Positions 8,515-64,000 of a stretch of DNA of 64,000 nucleotides are shown here, piece after piece. The notes beneath the pieces are model-generated. The model had not been told where the DNA came from. It saw only the letters and a program-made list of their open reading frames with translations, and searched no databases. The translations under genes and the position numbers were made by a program. This DNA comes from Pseudomonadota bacterium (GTDB lineage: Bacteria; Pseudomonadota; Gammaproteobacteria; Burkholderiales; Burkholderiaceae_C). Where the stretch lies: the NCBI GenBank assembly GCA_041694945.1, contig JBGFRU010000044.1, forward strand, positions 15,165 to 79,164, written 5' to 3'. Position 1 is the first letter of the stretch. Every line of letters begins with the position of its first letter.

Positions 8515-10425
8515 TCAGTCCAGCGCCGACAGATCGCGCACCGCGCCCTTGTCGGCCGACAGCACCAGCTTGGCGTAGGCCTTGAGCGCCGCCGAGACCT
8601 TGCGCGCGCGCGGCTGGGCCGGTTTCCAGCCCAGGCGGTCTTGCTCGGTGCGGCGCTGCGCCAGCTCGTCGTCGGTCACCAGCAGTTCGATGCGGCGCTG
8701 GGCGATGTCGATACGAATCCGGTCGCCGTCGCGCACCAGGCCGATGGCGCCGCCGGCGGCGGCCTCGGGTGAGGCGTGGCCGATGCTCAGGCCCGAGGTG
8801 CCGCCCGAGAAGCGCCCGTCGGTGAGCAAGGCGCAGACCTTGCCCAGCCCCTTGGACTTGAGGTACGAAGTCGGGTAGAGCATCTCTTGCATGCCGGGGC
8901 CGCCGCGTGGGCCTTCGTAGCGGATCACGACCACGTCGCCGGGCACGATCTGGTCGCTCAAAATCGCTTGCACGGCCGCGTCCTGGCTCTCGAAGACGCG
9001 CGCCGGGCCCTCGAAGGCGCGCAGGGTCGAGGTGGGCACGCTGGTGGTGTAGCGCAGTTGCTCGGCCTCGAACATGCTCTGATCGACGCCGGCGGTCTTG
9101 ACGATGCAGCCATCCAGCGCCAGGTTGCCGTAGAGCACCGCCAGCCCACCGTCGCGCGAGTAGGCGTGTTCCAGGTCGCGGATGCAGCCTTGGGCACGGT
9201 CGGTGTCCAGGCTGGGCCAGCGCTGGCTCTGGCTGAAGGCGGTCTGGCTCGGCACCCCGCCCGGTGCGGCGCGGTAGAAGGTTTGCACCTCGGCACTGGG
9301 CGCGCGTGCGATGTCCCACTGCGCCAGCGCCGCCGCCAAGCTCGGGCTGTGCACGGTGCCGCAGTGGGCGTGCAGCAGGCCGGCGCGGTCGAGCTCACCC
9401 AGAATGGCAAAAATGCCCCCGGCGCGGTGCACGTCTTCGATGTGGTAGCGGTCGGTGTTGGGTGCGACCTTGCACAGCGTGGGCACGCGGCGCGACAGGC
9501 GGTCGATGTCGGCCATGGTGAACTCGACCTCGGCCTCGCGCGCCGTGGCCAGCAGGTGCAGCACGGTGTTGGTGGAGCCGCCCATGGCAATGTCGAGCGC
9601 GATCGCGTTCTCGAAGGCCTCGAAGGTGGCGATCGAGCGCGGCAGCACCGAGGCGTCATCGCCCTCGTAGCAGCGCCGCGCCAGTTCGACGATCAGGCGT
9701 CCGGCGCGGCGAAACAGCTGCTCGCGGTCGGTGTGGGTGGCGAGCACGGTGCCGTTGCCGGGCAGGCTCAGGCCCAGGGCTTCGGTCAGGCAGTTCATCG
9801 AGTTGGCGGTGAACATGCCCGAGCACGAGCCGCAGGTGGGGCAGGCGTTGCGCTCGACTTCGGCCAGCTCGGCGTCCGACACCGAGGCGTCGGCGGCCAG
9901 CACCATGGCATCGACCAAGTCCAGCTTCTTGATCTGCACCGTCTGCTCGCCCGGCACGCTGCGCAACACCTTGCCGGCTTCCATCGGCCCGCCCGAGACG
10001 AACACCACCGGGATGTTCAGCCGCATGGCGGCCATGAGCATGCCTGGGGTGATCTTGTCGCAGTTGGAGATGCACACCAGCGCGTCGGCGCAGTGCGCGT
10101 TGACCATGTACTCGACCGAATCGGCGATCACCTCGCGACTGGGCAGCGAGTACAACATGCCGTCGTGGCCCATGGCGATGCCGTCGTCCACGGCGATGGT
10201 GTGAAACTCCTTGGCCACGCCGCCGGCGGCTTCGATCTCGCGCGCCACCAGTTGCCCCAGGTCCTTGAGGTGCACGTGGCCGGGAACGAACTGGGTGAAG
10301 CTGTTGGCGATGGCGATGATGGGCTTGTCAAAATCGCCGTCTTTCATGCCGGTGGCGCGCCACAGGGCACGGGCGCCCGCCATGTTGCGGCCAGCGGTGG
10401 AGGTTTTGGAGCGGTAGGTGGGCAT
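8515..10425 (-). CDS. ilvD: dihydroxy-acid dehydratase
   Basis: [53 protein letters not shown].. Start set at the conserved MPTYRS. Confidence 0.96.
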
Positions 10426-11579: not shown

Positions 11580-12455
11580 ATGAGCGAAGCCACCGCCAGC
11601 ACCCCCTACGGCACCTTGCCTGCCGCCTCGCCGCTGCCGCCGCGCAAGCCGGTGAGCCTGCCGCGCCTGCACGAGCTGCGCCAGCGCGGCGAAAAAATCA
11701 CCATGCTCACCGCCTACGACGCCACCTTTGCCGCCGTGGCCGACAGCGCCGGGATCGAGTGCCTGCTGGTGGGCGACTCGCTCGGCATGGTCTGCCAGGG
11801 CCTGAGCAGCACGGTCGGCGTGACGCTCGACACCATGTGCTACCACACCCAGAGCGTGACGCGCGGGCTGCGCCGGGTGCAGGGCACCGCTTGGGTGATC
11901 GGCGACCTGCCCTTTGGCAGCTACCAGGAGTCGCGTGAGCAGGCCATGCGCAGCGCCACCGCGCTGATGCACGCCGGCGCGCACATGGTCAAGCTCGAAG
12001 GCGGCGGCTGGACCACCGAGGTGGTGCGCTTTTTGGTCGAGCGCGGCATCCCGGTCTGCGCGCACTTGGGGCTGACGCCGCAAACCGTGCACGCCCTGGG
12101 CGGCTACCGGGTGCAGGGGCGCAGCGAAGCCGACGCCGAACGCCTGCAAGCCCACGCGCGCGCGCTGCAGGACGCCGGCGCCACCATGCTGGTGCTCGAG
12201 ATGGTGCCGGCCCACTTGGCCAGCGCCATCACGGCGCAGCTGCCGCACTGCCACACCATCGGCATCGGCTCGGGTGCGGGCACCGCCGGGCAGGTGCTGG
12301 TGATGCACGACATGCTGGGCGTGAACCTGGGCAAGCCGCCCAAGTTTGTGCGCAACTTCATGCACGGGCACGACGGCGTGGCACAAGCCATGGCGGCCTA
12401 CGTGCGCGCGGTCAAGGAAGGCAGCTTCCCCGATCCGGCCCTGCACGCCTGGTGA
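11580..12455 (+). CDS. panB: 3-methyl-2-oxobutanoate hydroxymethyltransferase
   Basis: ..[41 protein letters not shown].. Start at ATG 11580; the upstream part of the track ORF is antisense to nadC. Confidence 0.94.
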
Positions 12456-12546
12456 GCAGGGGCGGCGCGGCGCCCCTGGCCGCGAACGCCCTGAAATCCC
12501 TTGCCCCACAAGCCCCCTATTCCCCAGCCTTTGCCCCTGCCAGCCC

Positions 12547-13410
12547 ATGCGCGTCATCCACCGCTGTTCTGAACTGCGCCAGCACCTGGCGCGCTTCGAT
12601 CGCCCCGCCTTCGTGCCCACCATGGGCAACCTGCACGCTGGCCATCTGGCTTTGGTGCGCCAAGCCCAACCGCTGGGTGATGTGACGGTGGCCAGCATCT
12701 TCGTCAACCGGCTGCAGTTTTTGCCCCACGAAGATTTCGACAGCTACCCGCGCACCTTCGAGTCCGACTGCGCCCAGCTCGAAGCCGCCGGTTGCGACCT
12801 GCTGTTTGCCCCCACAGAAACCGAGCTGTATCCGCAGCCGCAGCGCTTCAAGGTGCTGCCGCCGCCCGAGCTGGCCGACATCCTGGAGGGCCAGTTCCGG
12901 CCCGGTTTCTTTACCGGCGTGTGCACCGTGGTGCTCAAGCTGTTTGCGCTCGTGTTTGGGCAGAGCAAGGGCGGTGGCCACGCCGTTTTTGGGCAAAAGG
13001 ACTACCAGCAGTGGCTGCTGCTGCGCCAGATGGTGCAGCAACTGGCGCTGCCGGTGACCCTGCACGCCGGCCCGACCGAGCGCGCCCCCGATGGACTGGC
13101 CCTGAGCTCGCGCAACGCCTACCTGTCGTCGGCCGAGCGCGCCGAGGCGGTGCAGCTCATCCTGGCGCTGCGCCGCCTGGCCGCTGCCGTGGCCGCTGGC
13201 GCAACCGACCTGGCGGCGCTGGAGCAGCAAGCCACGGCGCAGCTCAACGGGCGCGGCTGGCAGACGGATTACCTCACGGTGCGCCGCCGCAGCGATCTGC
13301 AAGCCCCACAGGGCACAGACTGGCCGGGCGCGGCCACGGCTGGCCATTGGGTCGCCCTCGGGGCGGCGCGGCTGGGGCGCACCCGCCTGATCGACAACTG
13401 GGAGTTTTGA
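12547..13410 (+). CDS. panC: pantoate--beta-alanine ligase
   Basis: [37 protein letters not shown].. (HIGH-type motif). Follows panB. Confidence 0.94.
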
Positions 13411-13444
13411 GCCCTGACCCCGGCGACCCGCTGCGCGGCACCGC

Positions 13445-14473
13445 TCAGACGCCTTGGGCGCGCTGCTCCGGCGTCGGGTCGCGCCCCATGAGCTGCTGCA
13501 CGGCCTGCGCCGGGCTGATTTCGGCATCGAGCAGCGCCACCACCGCTTGCGTGATCGGCATCTCCACCCCCAAGGCGCGCGCGCGCTGCGCCACCGTGCG
13601 GGCGCTGTACACCCCTTCGGCCACGTGACCGAGGGCACCGAGCGCCTGCCCCAGGCTCTGGCCTTGCGCCAAACGCAGCCCCACTTGGCGGTTGCGGCTC
13701 AGGTCGCCGGTGGCGGTGAGCACCAGATCGCCCAGGCCGCTCAGGCCCATGAAGGTTTCGGCGCGTGCGCCCAACGCCAGCCCCAGGCGCACGGTTTCGG
13801 CCAGCCCGCGCGTGATCAGGGCCGCGCGCGCGTTGTGGCCCAGCTGCAGGCCGTCGCACAGCCCGGTGGCGATGGCCAGCACGTTCTTCACCGCGCCGCC
13901 GACCTCCACGCCCACCACGTCGTCGTTGGCATAGACGCGCAGTGTGCGGCTGTGCAAGGCCTGCACCAGCCGCTGGCTCACGTGCGCCTGCGCGCTGGCG
14001 GCCACCAGCGCGGTGGGCGCGCCAGCGGCCACTTCTTTGGCAAAGCTGGGGCCGCTGAGCACGCCCACGGGCAGGCTTGGGGCCACTTGCAGCGCGATCT
14101 CGTGCCCAAGCAAGCCACTGCCCTGCTCAAAGCCCTTGCACAGCCAGACCACGGGCGCATCGAGAGCGCGCAAACGCTGCAGCAGGCCGCGCAACGCCGC
14201 CATCGGGGTGCCCAGCACGATCAGGTCGTCGGCCGCGCACAGCTGCGCCAGGTCGGCTTCGTCGGCGGCGCACAACTCCAGCGCGTCGGGAAAGGCGCAG
14301 CCGGGCAGGTAGCGCGCGTTGGCACGCGTGGCCTGCATGGCCGCCACCTGCACCGGGTCGCGCGCCCACAGGCGCACCCGCTGCACCGCACTGCCCGGAG
14401 CGCCTGCAGCACGCGCCGCCGCGATGGCCAGCGCCGTGCCCCAGGCACCGGCCCCCAGCAGGGTGATCTTCAT
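13445..14473 (-). CDS. gpsA: NAD(P)H-dependent glycerol-3-phosphate dehydrogenase
   Basis: [16 protein letters not shown].. Rossmann N-terminus, ..[12 protein letters not shown].. motif. Confidence 0.94.
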
Positions 14474-43211: not shown

Positions 43212-43957
43212 GTCTTGGGCGGGGCGGGCTGGCGCGGCCTGGTCGCCTTGGCGGGCTTGGCCTTGGGCGCATCCTCAGCGGCTTTGGCCTTGGCGGGCTT
43301 GGCTTTGGCGGGTTTGGCCTTGGGCGCATCCTCAGCGGCTTTGGCCTTGGCGGGCTTGGCTTTGGCGGGCTTGGCCTTGGGCGCATCCTCAGCGGCTTTG
43401 GCCTTGGCGGGCTTGGCTTTGGGCTGGTCGGCGACGGGTTTGTCCTTGGCGGCGGCGGGTCGGGCCGCCGGGGCCGGCGCGCCAACCTTCAAGCGCACCG
43501 GCTTGCTGCCCCAGATTTCTTCCAGCCGGTAGTACTGGCGGATGCTGGGCTGCATCACGTGCACCACCACCGCACCGCAGTCCACGACGATCCACTCGCC
43601 GTTTTCTTCGCCCTCCACCCGCGGCTTGTCAAAGCCGGCCTCGCGCACCGCGTCGCACACGCTGGCCGCCAGCGCCTTGGTCTGCCGGTTGGAGGTGCCG
43701 CTGGCCACGATCACGCGCTCGAACAGCGCCGACAGCGCCTCGGTGTTGAAAACCCGGATGTCTTGCGCCTTCACGTCCTCCAGGCCATCGACGGCGGCGC
43801 GCTGCAGCTTTTGGGTATTGCGCTTGGCGGTGCTCTCGCTCTGCGGGCTGGCGGCTGGGGCGCCCAAGCTGGCCAGGACGGCTGAAGCCGCCGCGGTGCC
43901 GCGGCTGTTGGGGCCAGCGGTCTGGCGGCTGGGTGCGCTGCGGGTTGGGCTGCTCAT
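43208..43957 (-). CDS. rsfS: ribosome silencing factor RsfS with a repetitive Lys/Ala/Pro-rich C-terminal tail
   Basis: Core ..[68 protein letters not shown], then the tail ..[22 protein letters not shown].. repeated. The ATG overlaps the nadD stop (ATGA). Confidence 0.85.
43241..43425. repeat. 57-bp (19-codon) tandem repeat, about 3 copies, inside the rsfS 3' region
   Basis: Unit GCCTTGGGCGCATCCTCAGCGGCTTTGGCCTTGGCGGGCTTGGCTTTGGCGGG(T/C)TTG starts at 43260, 43317 and 43374. Confidence 0.9.
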
Positions 43958-56291: not shown

Positions 56292-59200
56292 ATGCCGATC
56301 CATGTTGCCCTCAACCACGTCACCCACTACCGCTACGACCGCTGGGTGAAACTGGCCCCGCAGGTGCTGCGGCTGCGCCCGGCACCGCACACGCGCTCGC
56401 AGGTGCTGTCGTACGCGCAACGCATCGAGCCTGCCGAGCATTTCATCAACTGGCAGCAAGACCCGTTCGCCAATTACCTGGCCCGGGTGGTGTTCCCGCA
56501 GCCCATGCGCAGCTTTCAGGTCACCATCGATCTGGTGCTGGAAATGGCGGTGCACAACCCGTTCGACTTCTTTCTGGAGCCCTACGCCGAAACCTTCCCC
56601 TTTGCCTACCCGAGCGACTTGCAGACCGAACTGGCACCTTACCTGGAAGCCGCCCCAGCCGGGCCGCACTTGCAGGCATATCTGGCCCCCACGCGCGCCC
56701 AGTTGGCGGGCGCAGCGGCGCGCACGGTGGACTTTCTGGTCGCGCTCAACCAGCAACTGCAACGCGATATTGCCTACACCATACGGCTCGAACCTGGTGT
56801 GCAAACGCCGGAACAAACCTTGGGCCGCGCCACCGGCTCGTGCCGCGACAGCGCCTGGCTGCTGGTGCAGATGCTGCGCCAGTTGGGGCTGGCGGCGCGC
56901 TTCGTCTCGGGCTACCTGATTCAACTCAAGCCCGACGTCAAGCCCACCGACGGCCCGGCTGGCGCGGCGCAGGACTTTTGCGACCTGCACGCCTGGTGCG
57001 AGGTCTATTTGCCCGGCGCGGGCTGGATCGGGCTCGACCCGACCTCGGGCCTGCTGGCTGGCGAGGGCCATATTCCCCTGGCCTGCACGCCACAGCCTTC
57101 GAGCGCGGCCCCGATCAGCGGTGCGCTGGACGAATGCGAAGTCGCGTTCGAGCACCAGATGCGGCTCGAGCGCGTACACGAAAGCGCGCGCGTGACCAAG
57201 CCCTACAGCGAGGCGCAGTGGCAGGCAATTCATGCTTTGGGGCAGCAAGTCGACGCCGAGCTCGAGCGCGGCGACGTGCGCCTGACCATGGGCGGCGAGC
57301 CCACGTTCGTCAGCAGCAGCGAGCGCGACGCGCCGCAGTGGAACACCACTGCGCTGGGCCCGAGCAAGCGCCGCTACGCGCTGGAGCTGCTGCAGCGCTT
57401 GCGCGAACGCTACGGCGCCGGCGGCATCGTCCATTTGGGCCAGGGCAAGTGGTACCCGGGCGAGCCCCTGCCGCGCTGGGCGCTGTCGCTCTACTGGCGC
57501 ACCGACGCCGAGCCGATCTGGCACAACCCGGCGCTGCTGGACGGCGAACACGCGCCCCAGCGCTGCGACAGCGCCGACGCACAGCGCTTCATCGCTGCCT
57601 TGGCGCAGCGCCTCGGCCTGGGTTTGGAGACCGTCCAGCCGGCTTACGAAGACAGTTGGTACCACCTCTGGCGCGAAGGCCGACTGCCGCTCAACGTGGA
57701 CCCGCTCGAAGCCCGGCTCGACGACGAACTCGAACGCGCCCGCCTGCGCCGCGTCTTTCGCCAGGGGCTGGACGCCGTGGTCGGCTACGCCCTGCCCTTG
57801 CAGGCACAGCCCGCTGCGCCGGGCTCGTGTGCCGCCAGCAGCCGTTGGCGCAGCGGGCCTTGGTTCCTGCGCGAGCAGCGCCTGTACCTGATTCCTGGCG
57901 ATTCACCCATGGGCTACCGCCTGCCGCTGGACGCGCTGCCCTGGGTGGCAGCGAGCGACTGCCCCTTGCCCACCGAGCCCGACCCGGCTCAGCCACGCCC
58001 CGACTTACCCGCCGCCAGCGCCCTGCGCCTACGCTATGCGCAGCCTCCCCTGGGCAGCGCCGCAGCGCCGGCTGTGGCGGCGCGCATGCCGCAGCGCGGT
58101 GAATCTGCCGCCTGGCTGGTGCGCACCGCCCTGTGCGTGGAAGCGCGCGACCCGCAACGCGGCAACGGCTGCGAACCCGACCCCAAGGAGGGCAGTGCGC
58201 CGCAGTCGTGCCTGTACGTCTTCATGCCACCGCTGCCCGAGCTGGAAGACTACCTCGACCTGCTCGCCGCCGTCGAGGCCACGGCCGCGCAGTTGGGGCT
58301 GCCGATCGTGCTGGAGGGCTACCCACCGCCACGCGATGCGCGCTTGCAGATGCTGCAAGTCACACCCGACCCAGGCGTGATCGAGGTCAACATCCACCCG
58401 GCCCGGCATTGGGGTGAACTGGTCGAACGCACCGAGTTTTTGTACGAGGCGGCGCAGCAAGTGGGCTTGTGCGCCGAGAAGTTCCTCATCGACGGGCGCC
58501 ACACCGGCACCGGGGGCGGCAACCATTTCGTGCTCGGTGCAGCCACGCCGCTCGACAGCCCCTTTTTGCGCCGCCCCGAATTGTTGGCCAGCCTGCTGGC
58601 CTACTGGCACAACCACCCCAGCCTGAGCTACCTGTTCAGCGGCCTGTTCATCGGCCCGACCAGCCAGGCCCCGCGCGTGGACGAAGCGCGCAACGACCAG
58701 GTGTACGAGCTCGAGATCGCACTCAGCCAGATCGAACGCAGCCGCGAACTTTACGGGCAGCAGATGCCGCCCTGGCAAGTGGACCGCTGCTTGCGCAACA
58801 TCCTGGTCGATGTCAGCGGCAACACGCACCGCAGCGCGTTCAGCATCGACAAGCTGTACAGCCCCGACGGGCCGAGTGGACGCTTGGGGCTGCTCGAACT
58901 GCGCGCTTTCGAGATGCCACCGCACGCGCGCATGAGCCTGGTGCAGCAACTGCTGTTGCGCGCACTCGTGGCCCGGTTCTGGCAGCAACCTGGGCGCGCT
59001 CGCCTCACGCGCTGGGGCACCCAACTGCACGACCGCTTCCTGCTGCCGACTTTTGTGCGCCTGGACTTTGAGGACGTACTCGACGACCTGGCGCAACACG
59101 GCTTTGGTTTTGAACGCGCCTGGTTCGAGCCGCACTTCGAGTTTCGCTTTCCACTCATCGGCCAACTGGCGGCGCGCGGCATGGTGCTGACGCTGCGCCA

Positions 59201-59654
59201 CGCGCTCGAACCCTGGCATGTGCTGGGCGAGGAAGGCTCGACCCACGGCACCGTGCGCTACGTCGATTCTTCCGTCGAGCGGCTGGAGGTCAAGCTCAGC
59301 GGCTACAACGACAGCCGCTATGCTCTGGGCGTCAACGGGCGCGCGCTGCCGCTGCACCCCAGTGGCCTGGCGGGCGAATACGTGGCTGGCGTGCGCTTCA
59401 AGGCCTGGAACCCGGCTTCCAGCCTGCACCCGGGCGTGGGCGTGCACGCACCCCTGACCTTCGACATTTTCGACACCTGGCTGGGGCGCTCGGTGGGCGG
59501 CTGCCAATACCACGTCATGCACCCGGGCGGGCGCAACCACGAACGCCTGCCAGTCAACGCCTTCGAAGCCGAGAGCCGGCGCCTGGAACGCTTCTTCCGC
59601 ATGGGGCACACCCCGGGCACGCTGGCGCTGCAAGCCACGCAGCCGAGCCGGTAG
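56292..59654 (+). CDS. large transglutaminase-family protein (N-terminal transglutaminase-like cysteine-protease core + long DUF2126-type C-terminal region)
   Basis: MPIHVALNHVTHYRYDR.V.L.PQV.RLRP..H; Cys-His-Asp core context GSCRDSAWLLVQMLR..G..ARFVSGY / DLHAWCEVYLPGAGWIGLDPTSG. 1120 aa from ATG 56292. Confidence 0.88.
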   Translation: MPIHVALNHVTHYRYDRWVKLAPQVLRLRPAPHTRSQVLSYAQRIEPAEHFINWQQDPFANYLARVVFPQPMRSFQVTIDLVLEMAVHNPFDFFLEPYAETFPFAYPSDLQTELAPYLEAAPAGPHLQAYLAPTRAQLAGAAARTVDFLVALNQQLQRDIAYTIRLEPGVQTPEQTLGRATGSCRDSAWLLVQMLRQLGLAARFVSGYLIQLKPDVKPTDGPAGAAQDFCDLHAWCEVYLPGAGWIGLDPTSGLLAGEGHIPLACTPQPSSAAPISGALDECEVAFEHQMRLERVHESARVTKPYSEAQWQAIHALGQQVDAELERGDVRLTMGGEPTFVSSSERDAPQWNTTALGPSKRRYALELLQRLRERYGAGGIVHLGQGKWYPGEPLPRWALSLYWRTDAEPIWHNPALLDGEHAPQRCDSADAQRFIAALAQRLGLGLETVQPAYEDSWYHLWREGRLPLNVDPLEARLDDELERARLRRVFRQGLDAVVGYALPLQAQPAAPGSCAASSRWRSGPWFLREQRLYLIPGDSPMGYRLPLDALPWVAASDCPLPTEPDPAQPRPDLPAASALRLRYAQPPLGSAAAPAVAARMPQRGESAAWLVRTALCVEARDPQRGNGCEPDPKEGSAPQSCLYVFMPPLPELEDYLDLLAAVEATAAQLGLPIVLEGYPPPRDARLQMLQVTPDPGVIEVNIHPARHWGELVERTEFLYEAAQQVGLCAEKFLIDGRHTGTGGGNHFVLGAATPLDSPFLRRPELLASLLAYWHNHPSLSYLFSGLFIGPTSQAPRVDEARNDQVYELEIALSQIERSRELYGQQMPPWQVDRCLRNILVDVSGNTHRSAFSIDKLYSPDGPSGRLGLLELRAFEMPPHARMSLVQQLLLRALVARFWQQPGRARLTRWGTQLHDRFLLPTFVRLDFEDVLDDLAQHGFGFERAWFEPHFEFRFPLIGQLAARGMVLTLRHALEPWHVLGEEGSTHGTVRYVDSSVERLEVKLSGYNDSRYALGVNGRALPLHPSGLAGEYVAGVRFKAWNPASSLHPGVGVHAPLTFDIFDTWLGRSVGGCQYHVMHPGGRNHERLPVNAFEAESRRLERFFRMGHTPGTLALQATQPSR

Positions 59655-59682
59655 GCCTGTTCGAATTGTTTGCGACGCGTGA

Positions 59683-60834
59683 TCACATTGCGTGCGACGG
59701 AACTGGGTTTTGTTCGGATTGCGTGCGACATTCGGCGGCGTTTTGCTCGGATTGCGTGTGACATTGGGCGGCGTTTTGCTCGGATTGCGTGCGACATTGG
59801 GCGGCAGTTTTACGGGCGAGGATGAGGTCGCCCAGGGCGGATTCGACACTGCGGCGGGCGCTGCAGTGTTTGGCGTAGGCAAGGAAGGACTTGACGCGCT
59901 GGCGCACGTAGTCGAGGTCGATGTGGCCGTCGTGGTAGTCGGCGGCCATGTGCTTGAAGGCCAGGCGCGCGCGCTTGATGTTGCGCTTGCGCGGCAGGAT
60001 GTGGGTGGGCCAGATGCGGTAGCCGCAAAAGTCGATGCCGCGCTGCCAGGGATGGATGCCGGTCTTGGGGTTGAGCGTCAGGGCCAGGCCATTGACGGCT
60101 GCACCGAGATCGCGCAGGGCGCGCTGTGCGCTGGCTTTGTCGGGCAGGATGGCGACAAAGTCGTCCATGTAGCGGGCGTAGAAGCGCAGACCGAGTTCGT
60201 CTTTGGCGATGTGGTCGAGCCGGTTGAGCACGATGTTGGCGGCGAGCTGACTGGTGAGCGCACCGACGGGCAGGCCGACTCCGCCTTCGTGGCCGTAGCC
60301 GCCGATGACGGCGCGCCAGAGCCAGAGCACGTCGCGGTCGGCGATGGTGCGCTCGATTTCTGCCATAAGGACGTCGTGCCGGATGCTGGCGAAGTATTTG
60401 CTGATATCGGCCTTGAGGACGTAGGCGCGCTCGCCCCAGGCGCGCTTGGCAACGCGCATGAAGTGTTGCACACGCGCCACAGCCGCTTGCGTGCCTTTGC
60501 CGCTGCGGCAGGCGTAGGTGTCGGCGATGAAGCCGGCCTCGAACAGGGGTTCGACGCGGCGCACCAGGGCGTGGTGCAGCACGCGGTCGGCAAAGGGCGG
60601 GGCTTGAATCTGGCGCCGCTTGGGCTCGAAGACGACGAAGGCGCGCGCGGCGCCGGGCTGCCAACTGCGCCAAACGAGGTGGTTGTGCAGGTTGATGAGG
60701 TTTTCTTCGAGGTTGAGGGCGTAGCGCATGACGTCGGGGCTGTAGCGCTTGCCCATGCGCGCAGCGCGGTAGGCGGCGTGCAGGTTTTCGAAGGCGATGA
60801 GATCAGGCCAAAGGCCGTTGTGGGTGCGGGGCAT
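59683..60834 (-). CDS. DGR reverse transcriptase
   Basis: Collinear with my recollection of the Bordetella phage BPP-1 bRT: ..LWPDLIAFENLHAAYRAARMGKR.., FVVFEPKRRQI.AP.F.DRVLHHAL, YACRSGKGTQAAV, LKADISKYF.SI.H, GLPVGALTSQLAANIVLN (DGR-specific I/VGxxxSQ motif), FYARYMDDFV (YMDD catalytic box), IDFCGYRIWPTH.LPRKRNIKRA. Confidence 0.95.
   Translation of the reverse strand: MPRTHNGLWPDLIAFENLHAAYRAARMGKRYSPDVMRYALNLEENLINLHNHLVWRSWQPGAARAFVVFEPKRRQIQAPPFADRVLHHALVRRVEPLFEAGFIADTYACRSGKGTQAAVARVQHFMRVAKRAWGERAYVLKADISKYFASIRHDVLMAEIERTIADRDVLWLWRAVIGGYGHEGGVGLPVGALTSQLAANIVLNRLDHIAKDELGLRFYARYMDDFVAILPDKASAQRALRDLGAAVNGLALTLNPKTGIHPWQRGIDFCGYRIWPTHILPRKRNIKRARLAFKHMAADYHDGHIDLDYVRQRVKSFLAYAKHCSARRSVESALGDLILARKTAAQCRTQSEQNAAQCHTQSEQNAAECRTQSEQNPVPSHAM
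59687..59816. repeat. four tandem ~33-bp repeats at the extreme 3' end of the RT ORF
   Basis: Units start at 59687, 59718, 59751 and 59784, with consensus ATTGCGTGCGACATTGGGCGGCGTTTTGCTCGG. They translate in the RT frame as AAQC(R/H)TQSEQN repeats. Confidence 0.9.
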
Positions 60835-61136
60835 GGGTCAGGCGTCGAATAGGTGCGGCACCGCTTTCTTCAGCAGTCGCTCGCGGCATTCTTGTTCCAC
60901 CTCGTCCTTGAGCAGCCGGGTCATGTGCTGCAGACCCTTGTGCAGCACCTCGGTCTGCACCGAAACCGGCACGGGCGGGTCAGAGTCCATGTCTACAGCC
61001 AACGTGCACCGACCGTCCAGCATGTCGGCTGTATCGCGCAGCCACTGGCCCAGACCGGCAAGGGTCGGGAGCAAGGCCCCAAAGGATGCGCGCTGGACGC
61101 GCGCCCGGTGGGCGACGCGCCTGCTGGCGTGGGTCG
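60835..61136 (-). ncRNA. DGR spacer between TR and RT (expected part of the TR-containing template RNA)
   Basis: Called by position, by analogy with characterised DGRs. About 300 nt, which is longer than the BPP-1 spacer as I remember it. Also contains a coding-like ORF; see findings. Confidence 0.5.
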
Positions 61137-61243
61137 TTTGCGAGGCGGCCGCCGATGTTCGTGTTCGCATTCGACGCGGCGTTGTTGAGGTTGAGATAGA
61201 ACAGACCGGCGTTCGCGCCGTTGCCCCAATTGCCGCCGTTATA
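61137..61243 (-). repeat. DGR template repeat (TR)
   Basis: 107-bp match to 62236..62342. The minus-strand reading is rich in AAY codons: YNGGNWGNGANAGLFYLNLNNAASNANTNIGGRLA. Confidence 0.93.
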
Positions 61244-61280
61244 AGCCTTGCCCCTTTGTTTGATTGCAACAAGGTCTAAT

Positions 61281-61640
61281 TCATGCGCTTGCCCCTTCGT
61301 GCTTTATCCAGGCACCGACCATGGCGCCGATTTCGTTGATGTGGCGCATCCAGACGCCCAACCGATGGCTGTTGATGTAAGCGGCGCGGTGCGCCTTGCG
61401 CACCAGGCCGCGCAGCAATTCGATTTCCACGTCAAGGTCAAACAGGGCAGCCGCTTTCTGGCGCCGTTTCCAGGCGACGATGGTCAGGCGCAGCAGCCGG
61501 TTCATTGCGGCGCGCAGGTCGGCGCAAAGCAGATGGCGCTCCAGGCGTGGAAATTGGTGCAGCACGGTATGGGTGTAGGCATCGAGCTCTTCGAGCTTGG
61601 TCAGCAAGGCCAAATACGGGGCGGGCTGCGCCACACTCAA
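61281..61640 (-). CDS. avd: DGR accessory variability determinant (Avd, four-helix-bundle family)
   Basis: About 119 aa, helical and basic: ..LEELDAYTHTVLHQFPRLERHLLCADLRAAMNRLLRLTIVAWKRR...EIELLRGLVRKAH...YINSHRLGVWMRHINEIGAMVGAWIKH. Sits between the target gene and the TR. Start is TTG 61640 or GTG 61634, abutting the stop of the preceding ORF. Confidence 0.85.
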   Translation of the reverse strand: MSVAQPAPYLALLTKLEELDAYTHTVLHQFPRLERHLLCADLRAAMNRLLRLTIVAWKRRQKAAALFDLDVEIELLRGLVRKAHRAAYINSHRLGVWMRHINEIGAMVGAWIKHEGASA

Positions 61641-62095
61641 GCCGCCTGCTCGATGGCGCGCAGATCGGCCGCGTCGGGCGCGCTCGAGTTGGCCCAGTCG
61701 CGCACGGCGTTGATGTAGGTGGCCATGGCCTTGCGCTCGGCGGCGGGGCCGTCGCGCAGCAGATTGAGCTGGCGGTGGATTGGATAGCGCGCCTGGATGG
61801 CGGCGGCAGCCAGGCGGTTGACCTCGGCCAGGCGCTCGGCGGCAGCAGCGGCCTCGACGGCGGTGGCATCGGGCTCGAGATCGAGTTCGCCGAGCAGGGT
61901 GCAGGCGGCAAGGTCGCAGGCCGGGATGTCTTGCGCCACGCCGGGGATGCGCGCCGAAATGAACAGCCCGTCGGCGCGGTAGTCGGCGGGCACGGCCCAG
62001 ACGCAGACGGTGGATGCGACTGCGAGTGTGGGCAGGGCGATGGCGTGCTCTGCGCCCTGGTGGCTCAAGTGCAGGGTGCGGTTTTCAATGTGCAT
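61637..62095 (-). CDS. hypothetical protein encoded between the DGR target gene and avd
   Basis: 152 aa, strong GC3 codon bias, AGGAG 7 nt upstream of the ATG at 62095, stop fused to the avd start. I recognise no family. Confidence 0.65.
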   Translation of the reverse strand: MHIENRTLHLSHQGAEHAIALPTLAVASTVCVWAVPADYRADGLFISARIPGVAQDIPACDLAACTLLGELDLEPDATAVEAAAAAERLAEVNRLAAAAIQARYPIHRQLNLLRDGPAAERKAMATYINAVRDWANSSAPDAADLRAIEQAA

Positions 62096-62175
62096 GGAAA
62101 GGCTCCTGGGGGTTGGGGTTGATGATGGGGTGCGGCACGCGCATCAAGCCGCGCGGCTGCATGCGCGCCGGGGCC

Positions 62176-62192
62176 GCCCCGCTCGGCGGGGC
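62176..62192 (-). other. GC-rich hairpin downstream of the VR (candidate DGR target-recognition cruciform or terminator stem)
   Basis: GCCCCGC-tcg-GCGGGGC, a 7-bp stem with a 3-nt loop and no following U tract. It begins 37 nt past the target-gene stop codon on the minus strand. Confidence 0.45.
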
Positions 62193-62228
62193 AGCCCAAC
62201 AGCCACATGACGCAGGCCACATGACGCC

Positions 62229-64000
62229 TTACACCTTTGCGAGGCGGCCGCCGACGGTCGTGCTCGCAGTCGACGCGGCGTCGTTGAGGTAGAGATAGAA
62301 CAGACCGGCGTGCGCGCCGTCGCCCCAACCGCCGCCGTGATACGCGACGCAGTTGGGCGCTTGCCAATAGTGGTCGCCAAAGCTGCCCTGGCCGGATGCA
62401 GCCACGGCGTCGGGCACAAAGACTGCGCCCAGGTTGACTAGCCCGGCGCTGTCGCTGGCCATAGTGAGCGGTGCGCCGCTGGCCGGGGCGGTGCGGCTGC
62501 TGGTCTGGTAGCTGCGCTGGCCGTCGGTGCCCCAGATGCGGTAGCGCGAGCTGGCATCGGTCTGCAAGCCGTCGAGCATCTGCCAGACGTTGCCCCAGAG
62601 GCCAACGATGCCGCGCCAGGTGGCCTGCGCCACGGTGGCGTGGTCGACGTTGAGTGCGCTTGAGCCCGCCACATGGCCTTGACCGATGAGAGCCTGGCTG
62701 TCGGAGCCGCCCAGCTCGATCAGGGCCAGCATCTGGATGGCGCCGAGCTGGTACACGTCCCAGAGCGCAAAGCCGGTCACGCCGCCGGTGTTGCGCGCGT
62801 TGGCGCGCGCCTGCATGGTCGGGAAGTCGATCGACACCAGCGGCGCAACACCACCCACCGAGCCCAGGCGTGTTCCGCCGTCGTTGGTGCCCTGGAACTT
62901 GCCGACCCAGAATTGCGCAATCTGCGCCCCGGCGTGCATGAAGGCCGGGTGGACGGCAAAGTTGGCCGCCGGCTGGTCGGAGATGAGCCAAAAACGCCGC
63001 CCGGCGTGCGGCCCGCTGGGCACGGTGCCGGTGCGAAAGAAAAAGCGCGGCACGCGCACCATGGCCTGGCCGTCGATGGTCTGGTCGACGATGCCGGCAT
63101 AGACCGGGTGGTTGGCGAAGGTGGCGGTGGTGGTGCTGAGGTTGTTGAAGTGCTCGTCGACGCGCTGCCAGGCCCCGGCCCCGCCGCCGGTGGCGGTTTG
63201 CACGATGCCAATGATGTGCGCGAACTGCTGGCGCGTGGTGAAGGCCACATCCGCCGACCATTCGGATGCCCCCAGGCTGGTGCCGGTGTGGCGCACGCGC
63301 AACACGTACTGCGTTTGCCCGGCCAGCAGCACACCGGCGGGCAGGGTGAGGCTGGTGCGAGCGGCTGCGCTGGCGCCCGAATCCCACAGCGGCGCGGCCC
63401 AGGTGCCGCTGCTCAAGCGCAATTGCCATTGGCTGGAGGCATGGGCGTCGGCGCCGCCGGTGGTGGCGAAGGCGGCGGTCTGGAAGGTGGGCTGCTCGGG
63501 CACATCCGTCTGCCCCGGCGTGGGCGCAATGACAGCCGGGGTGTTGACAAAGGCGTAGCTGGCGCGGGTGGTGAAGCTGCTGCTGGCCGACCAGTCAGAG
63601 ACCAGGCCGGCGGCGTCGGTGACGCGCGCACGCACGTGGAAGGTGGTATTGACCGGCAGCACCCCGGCTGGCACCGAGAAGGTGAGCGCGGCGCGCGGCC
63701 CGCTGTCGTGCAGCACGGTGGCGAAGGTGGCGTTGGTGCTGATCTGGAACTGGGTCGAGGCAAAGGCGTTGCCCGCCGGGCTGGCAAAGCCCGCCACCGA
63801 CAGGGTGGGCGTCTCCACCACGTTGGTGGCACCGTTGGCGGGCGCGTTGATGACAGGCGCAGCCGGGCGCATGGCGGGGTTGACGAAGCCGGCCTGCCCG
63901 GTGGCGCTGCCCAGGGCCACGAGGTGGCGGATGGTCATGGCTTCGCCCGCGACTTCCAGGCGCAAAAAGCCGTCGCCGCGCATGGGCACGAGGTACTCGA
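62229..64000 (-). CDS. DGR target (variable) protein: two Fn3/Ig-like repeats + C-terminal CLec/FGE-like fold carrying the VR; the 5' end may be outside the window
   Basis: 586 aa from ATG 63989, and the frame stays open to position 64000. The C-terminus ..WRGIVGLWGNVWQMLDG.....YHGGGWGDGAHAGLFYLYLNDAASTASTTVGGRLAKV is typical of Mtd-like C-type-lectin-fold DGR targets. Confidence 0.88.
   Translation of the reverse strand, partial: EYLVPMRGDGFLRLEVAGEAMTIRHLVALGSATGQAGFVNPAMRPAAPVINAPANGATNVVETPTLSVAGFASPAGNAFASTQFQISTNATFATVLHDSGPRAALTFSVPAGVLPVNTTFHVRARVTDAAGLVSDWSASSSFTTRASYAFVNTPAVIAPTPGQTDVPEQPTFQTAAFATTGGADAHASSQWQLRLSSGTWAAPLWDSGASAAARTSLTLPAGVLLAGQTQYVLRVRHTGTSLGASEWSADVAFTTRQQFAHIIGIVQTATGGGAGAWQRVDEHFNNLSTTTATFANHPVYAGIVDQTIDGQAMVRVPRFFFRTGTVPSGPHAGRRFWLISDQPAANFAVHPAFMHAGAQIAQFWVGKFQGTNDGGTRLGSVGGVAPLVSIDFPTMQARANARNTGGVTGFALWDVYQLGAIQMLALIELGGSDSQALIGQGHVAGSSALNVDHATVAQATWRGIVGLWGNVWQMLDGLQTDASSRYRIWGTDGQRSYQTSSRTAPASGAPLTMASDSAGLVNLGAVFVPDAVAASGQGSFGDHYWQAPNCVAYHGGGWGDGAHAGLFYLYLNDAASTASTTVGGRLAKV
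62236..62342 (-). repeat. DGR variable repeat (VR) at the 3' end of the target gene
   Basis: 107 bp aligned to the TR with 11 mismatches, all opposite TR adenines. The 3' end carries a shared GC-rich 14-mer (GGCGGCCGCCTCGC), a position analogous to an IMH element. Confidence 0.93.

Follow-up and report, generated by a model that had tools for sequence, protein, structure and literature searches.

Organization of the locus

We analyzed a 64,000-nucleotide (nt) stretch of contig JBGFRU010000044.1 (GenBank assembly GCA_041694945.1, positions 15,165 to 79,164 of the forward strand; termed the window herein) from a bacterium of the Burkholderiaceae_C. Close to its right end lies a gene cluster that reads on the minus strand, in order, a tail fiber gene, a small open reading frame (ORF) termed ORF152, avd (accessory variability determinant), a noncoding repeat, a spacer of 302 nt, and a reverse transcriptase (RT) gene. 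A second copy of the repeat forms the end of the fiber gene. We interpret the two copies as the template repeat (TR) and the variable repeat (VR) of a diversity-generating retroelement (DGR) located where a provirus that carries a P2-type tail module ends within a GC-rich proteobacterial chromosome, and we assign this reading a probability of roughly 0.92. The parts of the cassette are as follows, with positions counted from the first letter of the window.

62229 to 64000, minus strand, running off the end of the window: target gene, the C-terminal 586 codons of an 855-amino-acid (aa) tail fiber protein
62236 to 62342, minus strand: VR, encoding YHGGGWGDGAHAGLFYLYLNDAASTASTTVGGRLA, the extreme C terminus of the fiber
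61637 to 62095, minus strand: ORF152, a conserved ORF of 152 aa between target and avd
61281 to 61640, minus strand: avd, with PHROG 3206, Pfam, and NCBIfam matches
61137 to 61243, minus strand: TR, reading YNGGNWGNGANAGLFYLNLNNAASNANTNIGGRLA, with 10 AAY asparagine codons
59683 to 60834, minus strand: DGR RT of 383 aa, with a conserved core from residue 1 to residue ∼345

Template and variable repeats differ only at template adenines

A repeat finder returned a single direct repeat of 110 nt at a spacing of 1,099 nt, and the two copies were then aligned base by base, without gaps, at that offset. Over 107 aligned bases (61137 to 61243 against 62236 to 62342), 11 mismatches were found, at TR positions 61156, 61158, 61164, 61170, 61183, 61192, 61213, 61222, 61230, 61231, and 61240. 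All 11 mismatched TR bases are T on the plus strand and thus A on the coding (minus) strand, and the coding-strand bases of the VR at these positions are six G, four C, and one T. The TR contains 27 coding-strand adenines in 107 nt (24 within 61140 to 61243, 13 of which are unchanged, plus the terminal AAA), and the two repeats are identical at all 80 nonadenine positions. If 11 mismatches fell at random, the hypergeometric probability that all of them would hit TR adenines is 4.2e-8. Each of the 24 internal TR adenines occupies codon position 1 or 2. The initial annotation of this DNA, made from the letters alone, had proposed a TR/VR pair with 11 of 11 differences on template adenines, 13 further coding-strand adenines in 61140 to 61243 and every C, G, and T position unchanged, 10 AAY codons, and the two peptide strings given above; our realignment and translation recovered every one of these details, down to the individual mismatch positions, and substitutions at nonadenine TR positions, which it had named as contrary evidence, were not seen.

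The homology ends abruptly on both sides, as the same annotation had it. The 5′ edge is set by a mismatch at 61244 (coding T in the TR, G in the VR), and the 3′ edge lies 3 nt past a common GC-rich 14-mer, GGCGGCCGCCTCGC, and 7 nt short of the end of the target ORF, whose stop codon has its last base at 62229. Counted back from the last codon of the target ORF, the VR spans the 37th to the 3rd codons. The noncoding TR has the stop codon of avd (61281) on one side and the start of the RT gene (60834) on the other. No further copy of the TR was found in the 64-kb window by blastn with the TR as the query, and an exact search for the 18-mer repeat end across the whole 33.7-kb provirus gave no match beyond these two.

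Cassette proteins and the fold of the variable domain

The RT matches the RVT_1 family of Pfam (E = 6e-20) and PHROG 1423 (E = 2e-126). It is 40% identical over residues 1 to 290 to bRT of BPP-1, the prototype DGR, and keeps YMDD, VGALTSQ, and Arg74. The DGR clade is marked by the combination of (I/V/L)GxxxSQ and YxDD, in which the former replaces the QGxxxSP of group II introns (introduction of PMC6328139). With the NCBIfam models for group II intron, retron, and Drt families, the RT stayed far short of each curated cutoff. Avd was recognized by the Pfam model bAvd (E = 3e-24; 85.9 bits against a cutoff of 40) and by the NCBIfam equivalog model NF033474, DivGenRetAVD (98.7 bits against a cutoff of 80).

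The length of 855 aa for the target is taken from full-length homologues, the window covering only the last 586 codons. The fiber consists of two Ig-like repeats (Pfam Ig_Rha78A_N match) followed by a receptor-binding domain of the C-type-lectin fold, and it matches PHROG 5302, annotated as tail protein (E = 3e-33). An AlphaFold2 (AF2) model of the last 331 fiber residues had a predicted local distance difference test (pLDDT) score of 95.5, and a Foldseek search with this model returned as the top match TaqVP, the target of a Thermus aquaticus prophage DGR (5vf4; E = 3e-14; TM score, 0.58), followed by Mtd, PvdO, TvpA, and EgtB. Taken together, the matches of the predicted structure represent the C-type-lectin fold of the formylglycine-generating enzyme (FGE) type. 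In a sequence comparison the VR aligned with TaqVP chain residues 348 to 381, and the VR of TaqVP comprises residues 341 to 381 (PMC6328139).

Fourteen TR codons carry adenines, 10 of them being the AAY codons, and the number of peptides that they can specify, a count that the initial annotation had left to be made, is ∼1.5e14, with no stop codon reachable. Across 52 homologous fibers, the mean column entropy was 2.65 bits in the 14 adenine codons and 0.69 bits in the other VR columns, and the hypervariable columns coincide with the adenine codons (Mann-Whitney P = 2e-7).

The Avd gene is preceded by ORF152, which has an N-terminal beta domain with invariant WxVPxxYRADGLF and PACDLAAC motifs and then a helical tail. 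Homologues of ∼193 aa bear PF27318. The window's protein had no match among the profiles of Pfam (in a set without PF27318), PHROG, or NCBIfam, and its AF2 model (pLDDT, 78) gave no significant Foldseek match in BFVD. Homologues occupy the same position in the closest relatives and follow the RT gene in two more distant loci (L014 and L015); ORF152 thus travels with the fiber and the DGR and is not fixed inside the cassette. ORF152 may be a fiber chaperone, an idea that comes from gene position only, or a DGR accessory protein.

Candidate target recognition elements downstream of the VR

Three elements lie at or just beyond the 3′ end of the VR, the first of them resembling the IMH (initiation of mutagenic homing) sequence of other DGRs.

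62239 to 62252, minus strand: GC-rich, IMH-like 14-mer GGCGGCCGCCTCGC at the 3′ end of the VR, with an identical TR copy at 61140 to 61153
62202 to 62227, minus strand: two direct copies of GCGTCATGTGGC (GTCATGTG repeats) between the fiber stop codon and the GC hairpin
62176 to 62192: GC-rich inverted repeat GCCCCGC-cga-GCGGGGC with a 7-bp stem, 43 nt past the end of the VR homology

In all relatives the TR/VR homology stops at the same GCAAA, 3 nt past the 14-mer. The GCGTCATGTGGC pair may supply the VR-specific portion of the target recognition sequence; a similar pair of GTCATGT-type motifs is kept at the same spot in many relatives, and this conservation suggests a protein or cDNA recognition site. 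By its sequence and position, the inverted repeat is the predicted hairpin or cruciform expected downstream of a DGR target. Such a structure is needed for retrohoming in BPP-1, where a GC stem of 7 to 10 bp with a GRNA loop lies 4 to 34 bp from the VR (PMC3240598). Among the relatives of the window, nearly all loci have a perfect GC-rich inverted repeat 33 to 43 nt past the end of the homology; stems of 6 bp or longer were recovered from 45 of the 47 loci searched, in a search that itself demanded perfect pairing. The stem covaries, with 19 different sequences among 36 distinct relatives. As to the loops, the window's clade has CGA or CAA, and the other relatives have GATA, GAAA, or GAGA.

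The template-side RNA and its replaced distal spacer

Sequences covering the spacer and the TR 3′ end were aligned from 35 family members, and a covariance model was built from 34 relatives, with the window left out. Three features of the window are needed here.

61243 to 61254, minus strand: GGGGCAAGGCUU, which crosses the 5′ edge of the TR and forms the upstream strand of a long-range duplex in the RNA
61059 to 61136, minus strand: conserved proximal spacer RNA, with stem-loop P1, the 3′ strand of the duplex, and the start of stem-loop P2
61058 to 60837, minus strand: captured fragment of a small phage early-region gene, its 3′ three-quarters (codons ∼22 to 94)

Stem-loop P1 (61095 to 61121) follows directly on the TR and is supported by many compensatory pairs in the relatives, as is stem-loop P2. 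The long-range duplex has 12 bp, formed by 61243 to 61254 with spacer nt 58 to 69 (61068 to 61079), and compensatory changes maintain it in most of the 24 family members examined. The covariance model matched 61016 to 61156 with 67.8 bits (E = 6e-15), and model positions 1 to 100 aligned well. The ribonucleoprotein (RNP) of BPP-1 contains an Avd-binding stem-loop, a "cPRT Stop" duplex, a stem-loop, a single-stranded Thumb Ring, and an RT-binding stem-loop (bioRxiv 10.1101/2023.10.23.563531). In position and pairing pattern, P1, P2, and the long-range duplex correspond to the Avd-binding stem-loop and to the cPRT-Stop duplex and stem-loop. The BPP-1 RNA was not detected by the family's spacer covariance model, so the comparison rests on position and pairing pattern and not on an alignment.

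Past P2, the 34 relatives share two elements, a nearly invariant single-stranded stretch rich in A, GAAGAUnAACAG, and a long stem-loop with interruptions, GGGCGCUGC...GCGGCGCCC, which by analogy take the positions of the BPP-1 Thumb Ring and RT-binding stem-loop. In the window, part of the helper RNA is replaced by a piece of another phage gene, and this is the single unusual point of the element. The captured fragment begins exactly at 61058, has 77% DNA identity to two homologous loci (L168 and L174), and ends 3 nt ahead of the RT ATG; gene callers give an ORF of 50, 78, or 110 aa for it. The family of the captured gene has ∼95 to 100 aa, 53 representative homologues (best E = 6e-14), and the motif WLR..A..DGR..LA..M.S.PP.P...G..HM.RL; no Pfam or PHROG assignment was obtained for it. 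The fragment is without the N-terminal ∼20 residues of this family and without a start codon of its own. Elsewhere, members of the family occur among ERF, YqaJ, primase, and repressor genes in early operons of phages, or else in a gene cluster for a conjugative pilus. We also considered the spacer ORF as a DGR accessory gene and rejected this, as its homologues never lie beside a DGR. The captured copy can fold a 10-bp hairpin near the place of the lost stem-loop (−20.1 kcal/mol, compared with −12.4 ± 2.8 kcal/mol for shuffled sequences), and this fold is specific to the window's copy, as homologous genes elsewhere do not form it.

Searches for other RNA elements and signals added little. No Rfam family matched within 59000 to 64000 at an E value of ≤1, and in a scan for promoter and terminator consensus sequences the terminator-like matches were all one short stem that occurs within the TR and the VR. 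A weak match of the covariance model at 10120 to 10188 was dismissed as a coding region that merely resembles the repeat end.

Related loci and a diverged allele of the same locus

A genome scan with the RT and a scan of viral contigs with the fiber gave 80 loci each, and at least 137 IMG/VR contigs bear the fiber. The closest relatives include loci from Burkholderiaceae, Azonexus, Gulbenkiania, Bordetella hinzii, and Castellaniella. Of 96 related loci, 52 had a VR/TR pair that passed an adenine filter, which called for TR adenines at 70% or more of the mismatched sites; pooled over these 52 loci, 86% of 644 mismatches, with edge mismatches included in the count, lie on TR adenines, and adenine makes up 23.5% of the TRs. 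The adenine bias was common to every relative for which a TR could be recovered. The window belongs to a family of prophage DGRs from betaproteobacteria and Pseudomonas whose targets are 855-aa fibers annotated as "Ig-like domain-containing." Within this family the identities to the window are 45 to 76% for the fiber, 65 to 76% for the RT, and 73 to 78% for Avd, and the ORF152 homologue, the repeat end, the position of the hairpin, and the proximal spacer are held in common. The differences are a spacer of 302 nt with the captured gene fragment in the window compared with ∼150 nt with conserved distal motifs in the relatives, and an ORF152 of 152 aa compared with ∼193 aa. Some relatives have a second VR ∼30 kb away that uses the same TR, whereas the provirus of the window has one VR, as judged by the exact 18-mer search. 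We found no characterized member of this family, and INPHARED contained no close sequenced phage (best fiber match, 26%, to Yersinia fEV-1; best RT match, 46%).

Some related loci are more elaborate. At least two related proviruses (L083/L132 and L113/L152) have a second adenine-mutated VR in a different, fiber-like gene on the same contig, with 11 of 13 and 9 of 9 mismatches on TR adenines, respectively. L003, L010, L011, and L012 carry a tandem pair of avd-RT cassettes; there the second TR-like sequence (L010 to L012) and spacer (L003 and L010) match the family model strongly, and the first is far more divergent.

The metagenome-assembled genome (MAG) GCA_040752095.1 (L001) contains the same locus as a 98%-identical allele. 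Between the two, there are no differences in the RT, the captured fragment, 7.4 kb of chromosome, or the fiber upstream of 62484. All 75 differences lie in the block from 61076 to 62484 (12313 to 13718 in the MAG), which reaches from the VR through the TR and 60 nt into the spacer. Its divergence is ∼5%, for the most part synonymous, and more than 10 kb of identical sequence flanks it on each side. The differences include 19 nt in ORF152, changing 4 aa, and 21 nt in avd, changing 2 aa. The block looks like a recombination tract with its spacer-side edge at the junction with the foreign fragment, and it is what we would expect to see if a phage whose spacer is normal had donated it through homologous recombination.

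Inside this recombined block, 12 of the 14 VR differences between the alleles fall on TR adenines. The remaining two (62268 and 62266) are the same substitutions that separate the two TRs (61169 and 61167). Since these nonadenine substitutions of the TR are mirrored in its own VR, TR and VR exchange sequence. Exchange alone gives no direction; it is the adenine-only pattern that indicates transfer from the TR to the VR.

Interpretation and alternative explanations

The adenine-only pattern, the protein parts, the fold of the target, the hairpin, the proximal RNA elements, and the TR/VR exchange in two alleles together show that the element is a DGR. The signature of mutagenic retrohoming described in the initial annotation is supported, every testable DGR component having been found in the expected order and neither the RT nor Avd having turned out to be of another retroelement class. 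By analogy with BPP-1, the enzymology of the element can be pictured in four steps. The RNA running from the 3′ end of avd through the TR and spacer would first fold around the RT-Avd complex. The TR would then be reverse transcribed faithfully except opposite adenines. Thereafter, the mutagenized cDNA would replace the VR, guided there by the GC-rich end of the repeat together with the VR-specific sequence downstream and the GC hairpin. The TR itself would stay unaltered. Since TR adenines occur only at positions 1 and 2 of 14 codons, each homing event would redraw the ligand-binding face of the C-type-lectin domain, which presumably lets the phage switch receptor specificity.

A few observations weigh against this reading. 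The loop of the hairpin has 3 nt (CGA) where the consensus is a 4-nt GRNA, and its distance of 43 nt from the VR is beyond the reported 4 to 34 bp. Model positions 101 to 143 have no alignment in the window, the distal spacer elements of the 34 relatives being absent and foreign coding sequence standing in their place from 61058 onward. In BPP-1, deletion of Sp83-140 or Sp96-140 abolishes cDNA synthesis (bioRxiv 10.1101/2023.10.23.563531). Finally, because the diverged block ends at the junction, the allelic VR differences may stem from a donor phage with an intact spacer and are no proof of present activity. The replacement of part of the helper RNA was overlooked in the initial annotation; its DGR reading stands, and present-day activity is what comes into question. 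The replacement bears on activity and not on DGR membership, as the distal spacer is a feature of the BPP-1 RNP and of the window's clade that lies outside the usual definition of a DGR.

The alternative that survives best is a frozen DGR, in which retrohoming took place in the past, replacement of the distal spacer then stopped cDNA synthesis, and the VR has been fixed since, with RT and Avd not yet decayed. The missing segment is nearly invariant in the 34 relatives and its counterpart is essential in vitro in BPP-1; the sequence changes sharply at 61058, and beyond this junction the DNA is 77% identical to a gene restricted elsewhere to phage early operons; the captured gene lacks its own N terminus and start codon; and the divergence of the alleles stops at the junction, so that import from another phage explains the VR differences. 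On the other hand, TR and VR are still equal at all 80 nonadenine positions, the ORFs of RT, Avd, and the captured fragment are intact, the 10-bp hairpin specific to the window could stand in for the lost stem-loop, and the requirement for the distal spacer was tested in BPP-1 only, whose RNA escapes the covariance model of the family. Weighing these points, we consider a frozen element quite possible but somewhat short of an even chance, and we lean to the same degree, that is, slightly away from it, on the bare statement that the element is now inactive. The opposite case, in which the element still diversifies the fiber without the distal spacer, either because the hairpin of the captured fragment has been co-opted as a substitute for RT binding or because the truncated protein is a new accessory factor, appears unlikely to us.

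An assembly artefact, in the form of a chimeric metagenomic contig joining strain variants at the repeat, could be suspected, since the contig comes from a metagenome, repeats and hypervariable sites can mislead assemblers, and the MAG, identical in other parts, departs from the window by 5% over 1.4 kb. We nevertheless regard it as highly improbable. The same sequence, including the VR, is present in a JGI assembly (the window is identical to metagenome contig Ga0484005_000047, of 256 kb), in an IMG/VR provirus (the window from 59683 onward is identical to the end of UViG_3300045454_000107), and in a Logan assembly of a sequencing run, of which contig L163, with ORF152, is identical to the window over 13.5 kb and supplies no independent VR allele. 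The same architecture occurs in isolate genomes, such as those of Gulbenkiania mobilis DSM 18507 and Bordetella hinzii LMG 13501, and the differences in the diverged block are mostly synonymous, indicating a real allele.

An ordinary duplication or gene conversion tract whose copies drifted by normal mutation, without a retroelement, is the least probable explanation and can be practically dismissed: direct repeats of ∼100 nt do arise in this way and the region has recombined with a diverged allele, but drift predicts about one-quarter of the differences on adenines rather than the observed 11 of 11 (P = 4e-8), which lie at codon positions 1 and 2 and always on the adenines of the noncoding copy, the same adenine bias recurs in 52 related loci, and the template copy is flanked by Avd and a DGR-type RT.

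Provirus setting

The provirus that carries the target fiber measures 33.7 kb, has a tail module of the P2 type, and ends with the DGR. By gene calls and Pfam matches, the genes upstream of the target encode tube, tape-measure, gpU, gpX, gpD, gpV, PAAR, gpW, gpJ, gpI, and tail fiber N-terminal proteins, and the fiber gene follows directly on the P2-type baseplate genes. These tail module genes identify the target as the fiber of a P2-type contractile tail, belonging to a prophage or conceivably a tailocin. The PAAR-motif gene lies past the window end (4209 to 4511 of L162, the source contig), between the gpV-like spike and gpW-like baseplate genes. At the other end, the provirus call stops at the RT stop codon (59683), beyond which are chromosomal genes for a transglutaminase, an ATP-grasp protein, ClpS, and ClpA. 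The junction itself is marked by one further feature.

59707 to 59811: 3.2 tandem copies of the 33-nt unit GTTTTGCTCGGATTGCGTGCGACATTGGGCGGC at the provirus/chromosome junction

The GTTTTGCTCGGATTGCGTGCGACATTGGGCGGC unit occurs nowhere else in the window. The RT ORF reads through the copies as an 11-aa repeat tail that is not seen in relatives: these align with RT residues 1 to ∼340 to 347, and the last ∼40 residues of the window's RT come from the tandem repeats. At the same provirus edge, the relatives have other short direct repeats and, in two of them (L003 and L006), what appear from the sequence to be tRNA 3′ ends, which would point to an integrase-type insertion. The 33-nt repeats are probably attachment-region repeats of the integrase arm type, lying outside the DGR. 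We also considered them as the end of a Mu-like transposable phage and set this aside, as L003 and L006 apparently end at tRNA 3′ ends. A second tandem repeat, with a 57-nt unit, was observed at 43248 to 43460 in a GC-rich stretch (3.1 copies, 98% identity, with overlapping periodicities of 21 and 42 nt).

Comparison with known DGRs and implications

Phage tail fiber DGRs with C-type-lectin targets have been known since BPP-1, and many have been catalogued from metagenomes. The BPP-1 element (mtd-avd-TR-brt) has the same gene order as the window, with the VR in the last codons of a receptor-binding protein of the C-type-lectin fold. Both have an AAY-rich TR, Avd, and RTs that are 40% identical and carry (I/V)GxLTSQ and YMDD; a repeat end with a GC-rich 14-mer, and a hairpin of GC pairs further downstream of the VR; a stem-loop directly behind the TR, together with a duplex whose strands enclose the TR; and a cassette at the genome end, adjoining the attachment site. 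The two differ in that BPP-1 is short tailed and has a 381-aa Mtd, whereas the window encodes an 855-aa fiber on a P2-type contractile tail and, unlike BPP-1, has the conserved ORF152 between target and avd. The TR/VR homology stops 3 nt past the 14-mer in the window but runs through a 21-bp IMH/IMH* segment in BPP-1, the hairpin of BPP-1 has a GAAA loop and lies only a few nucleotides away from the VR (compared with the CGA loop at 43 nt in the window), the Avd proteins are only 23% identical, and the Thumb Ring and RT-binding part of the spacer, present in BPP-1, is swapped for foreign sequence in the window.

TaqVP (PDB 5VF4) is the best match of the C-terminal domain of the target both in sequence (E = 5e-5) and in structure. 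The two share a VR at the extreme C terminus, a GGxWGxG...AGL...GxR framework, and a prophage-borne avd-TR-RT cassette (PMC6328139). Their identity is 18 to 20%, and TaqVP is a free-standing protein of 381 residues with 9 variable residues and 3e9 variants, whereas the domain in the window is fused to a long Ig-repeat fiber and has 14 variable codons and 1.5e14 variants.

As a DGR, the element is nothing new in kind: it carries the textbook signature of a well-catalogued system, and its provirus is already in IMG/VR. Its value lies in offering a clean annotated example from a large, barely described family of betaproteobacterial and Pseudomonas prophages, and the conserved RNA elements, the hairpin, and the extra gene ORF152 can now be defined for the family with 855-aa fibers. 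The natural replacement of the distal spacer provides a ready-made test of whether the RNA elements that are essential in BPP-1 matter in other DGRs. If the element were still active, the RNA scaffold of DGRs would be modular and replaceable in nature.

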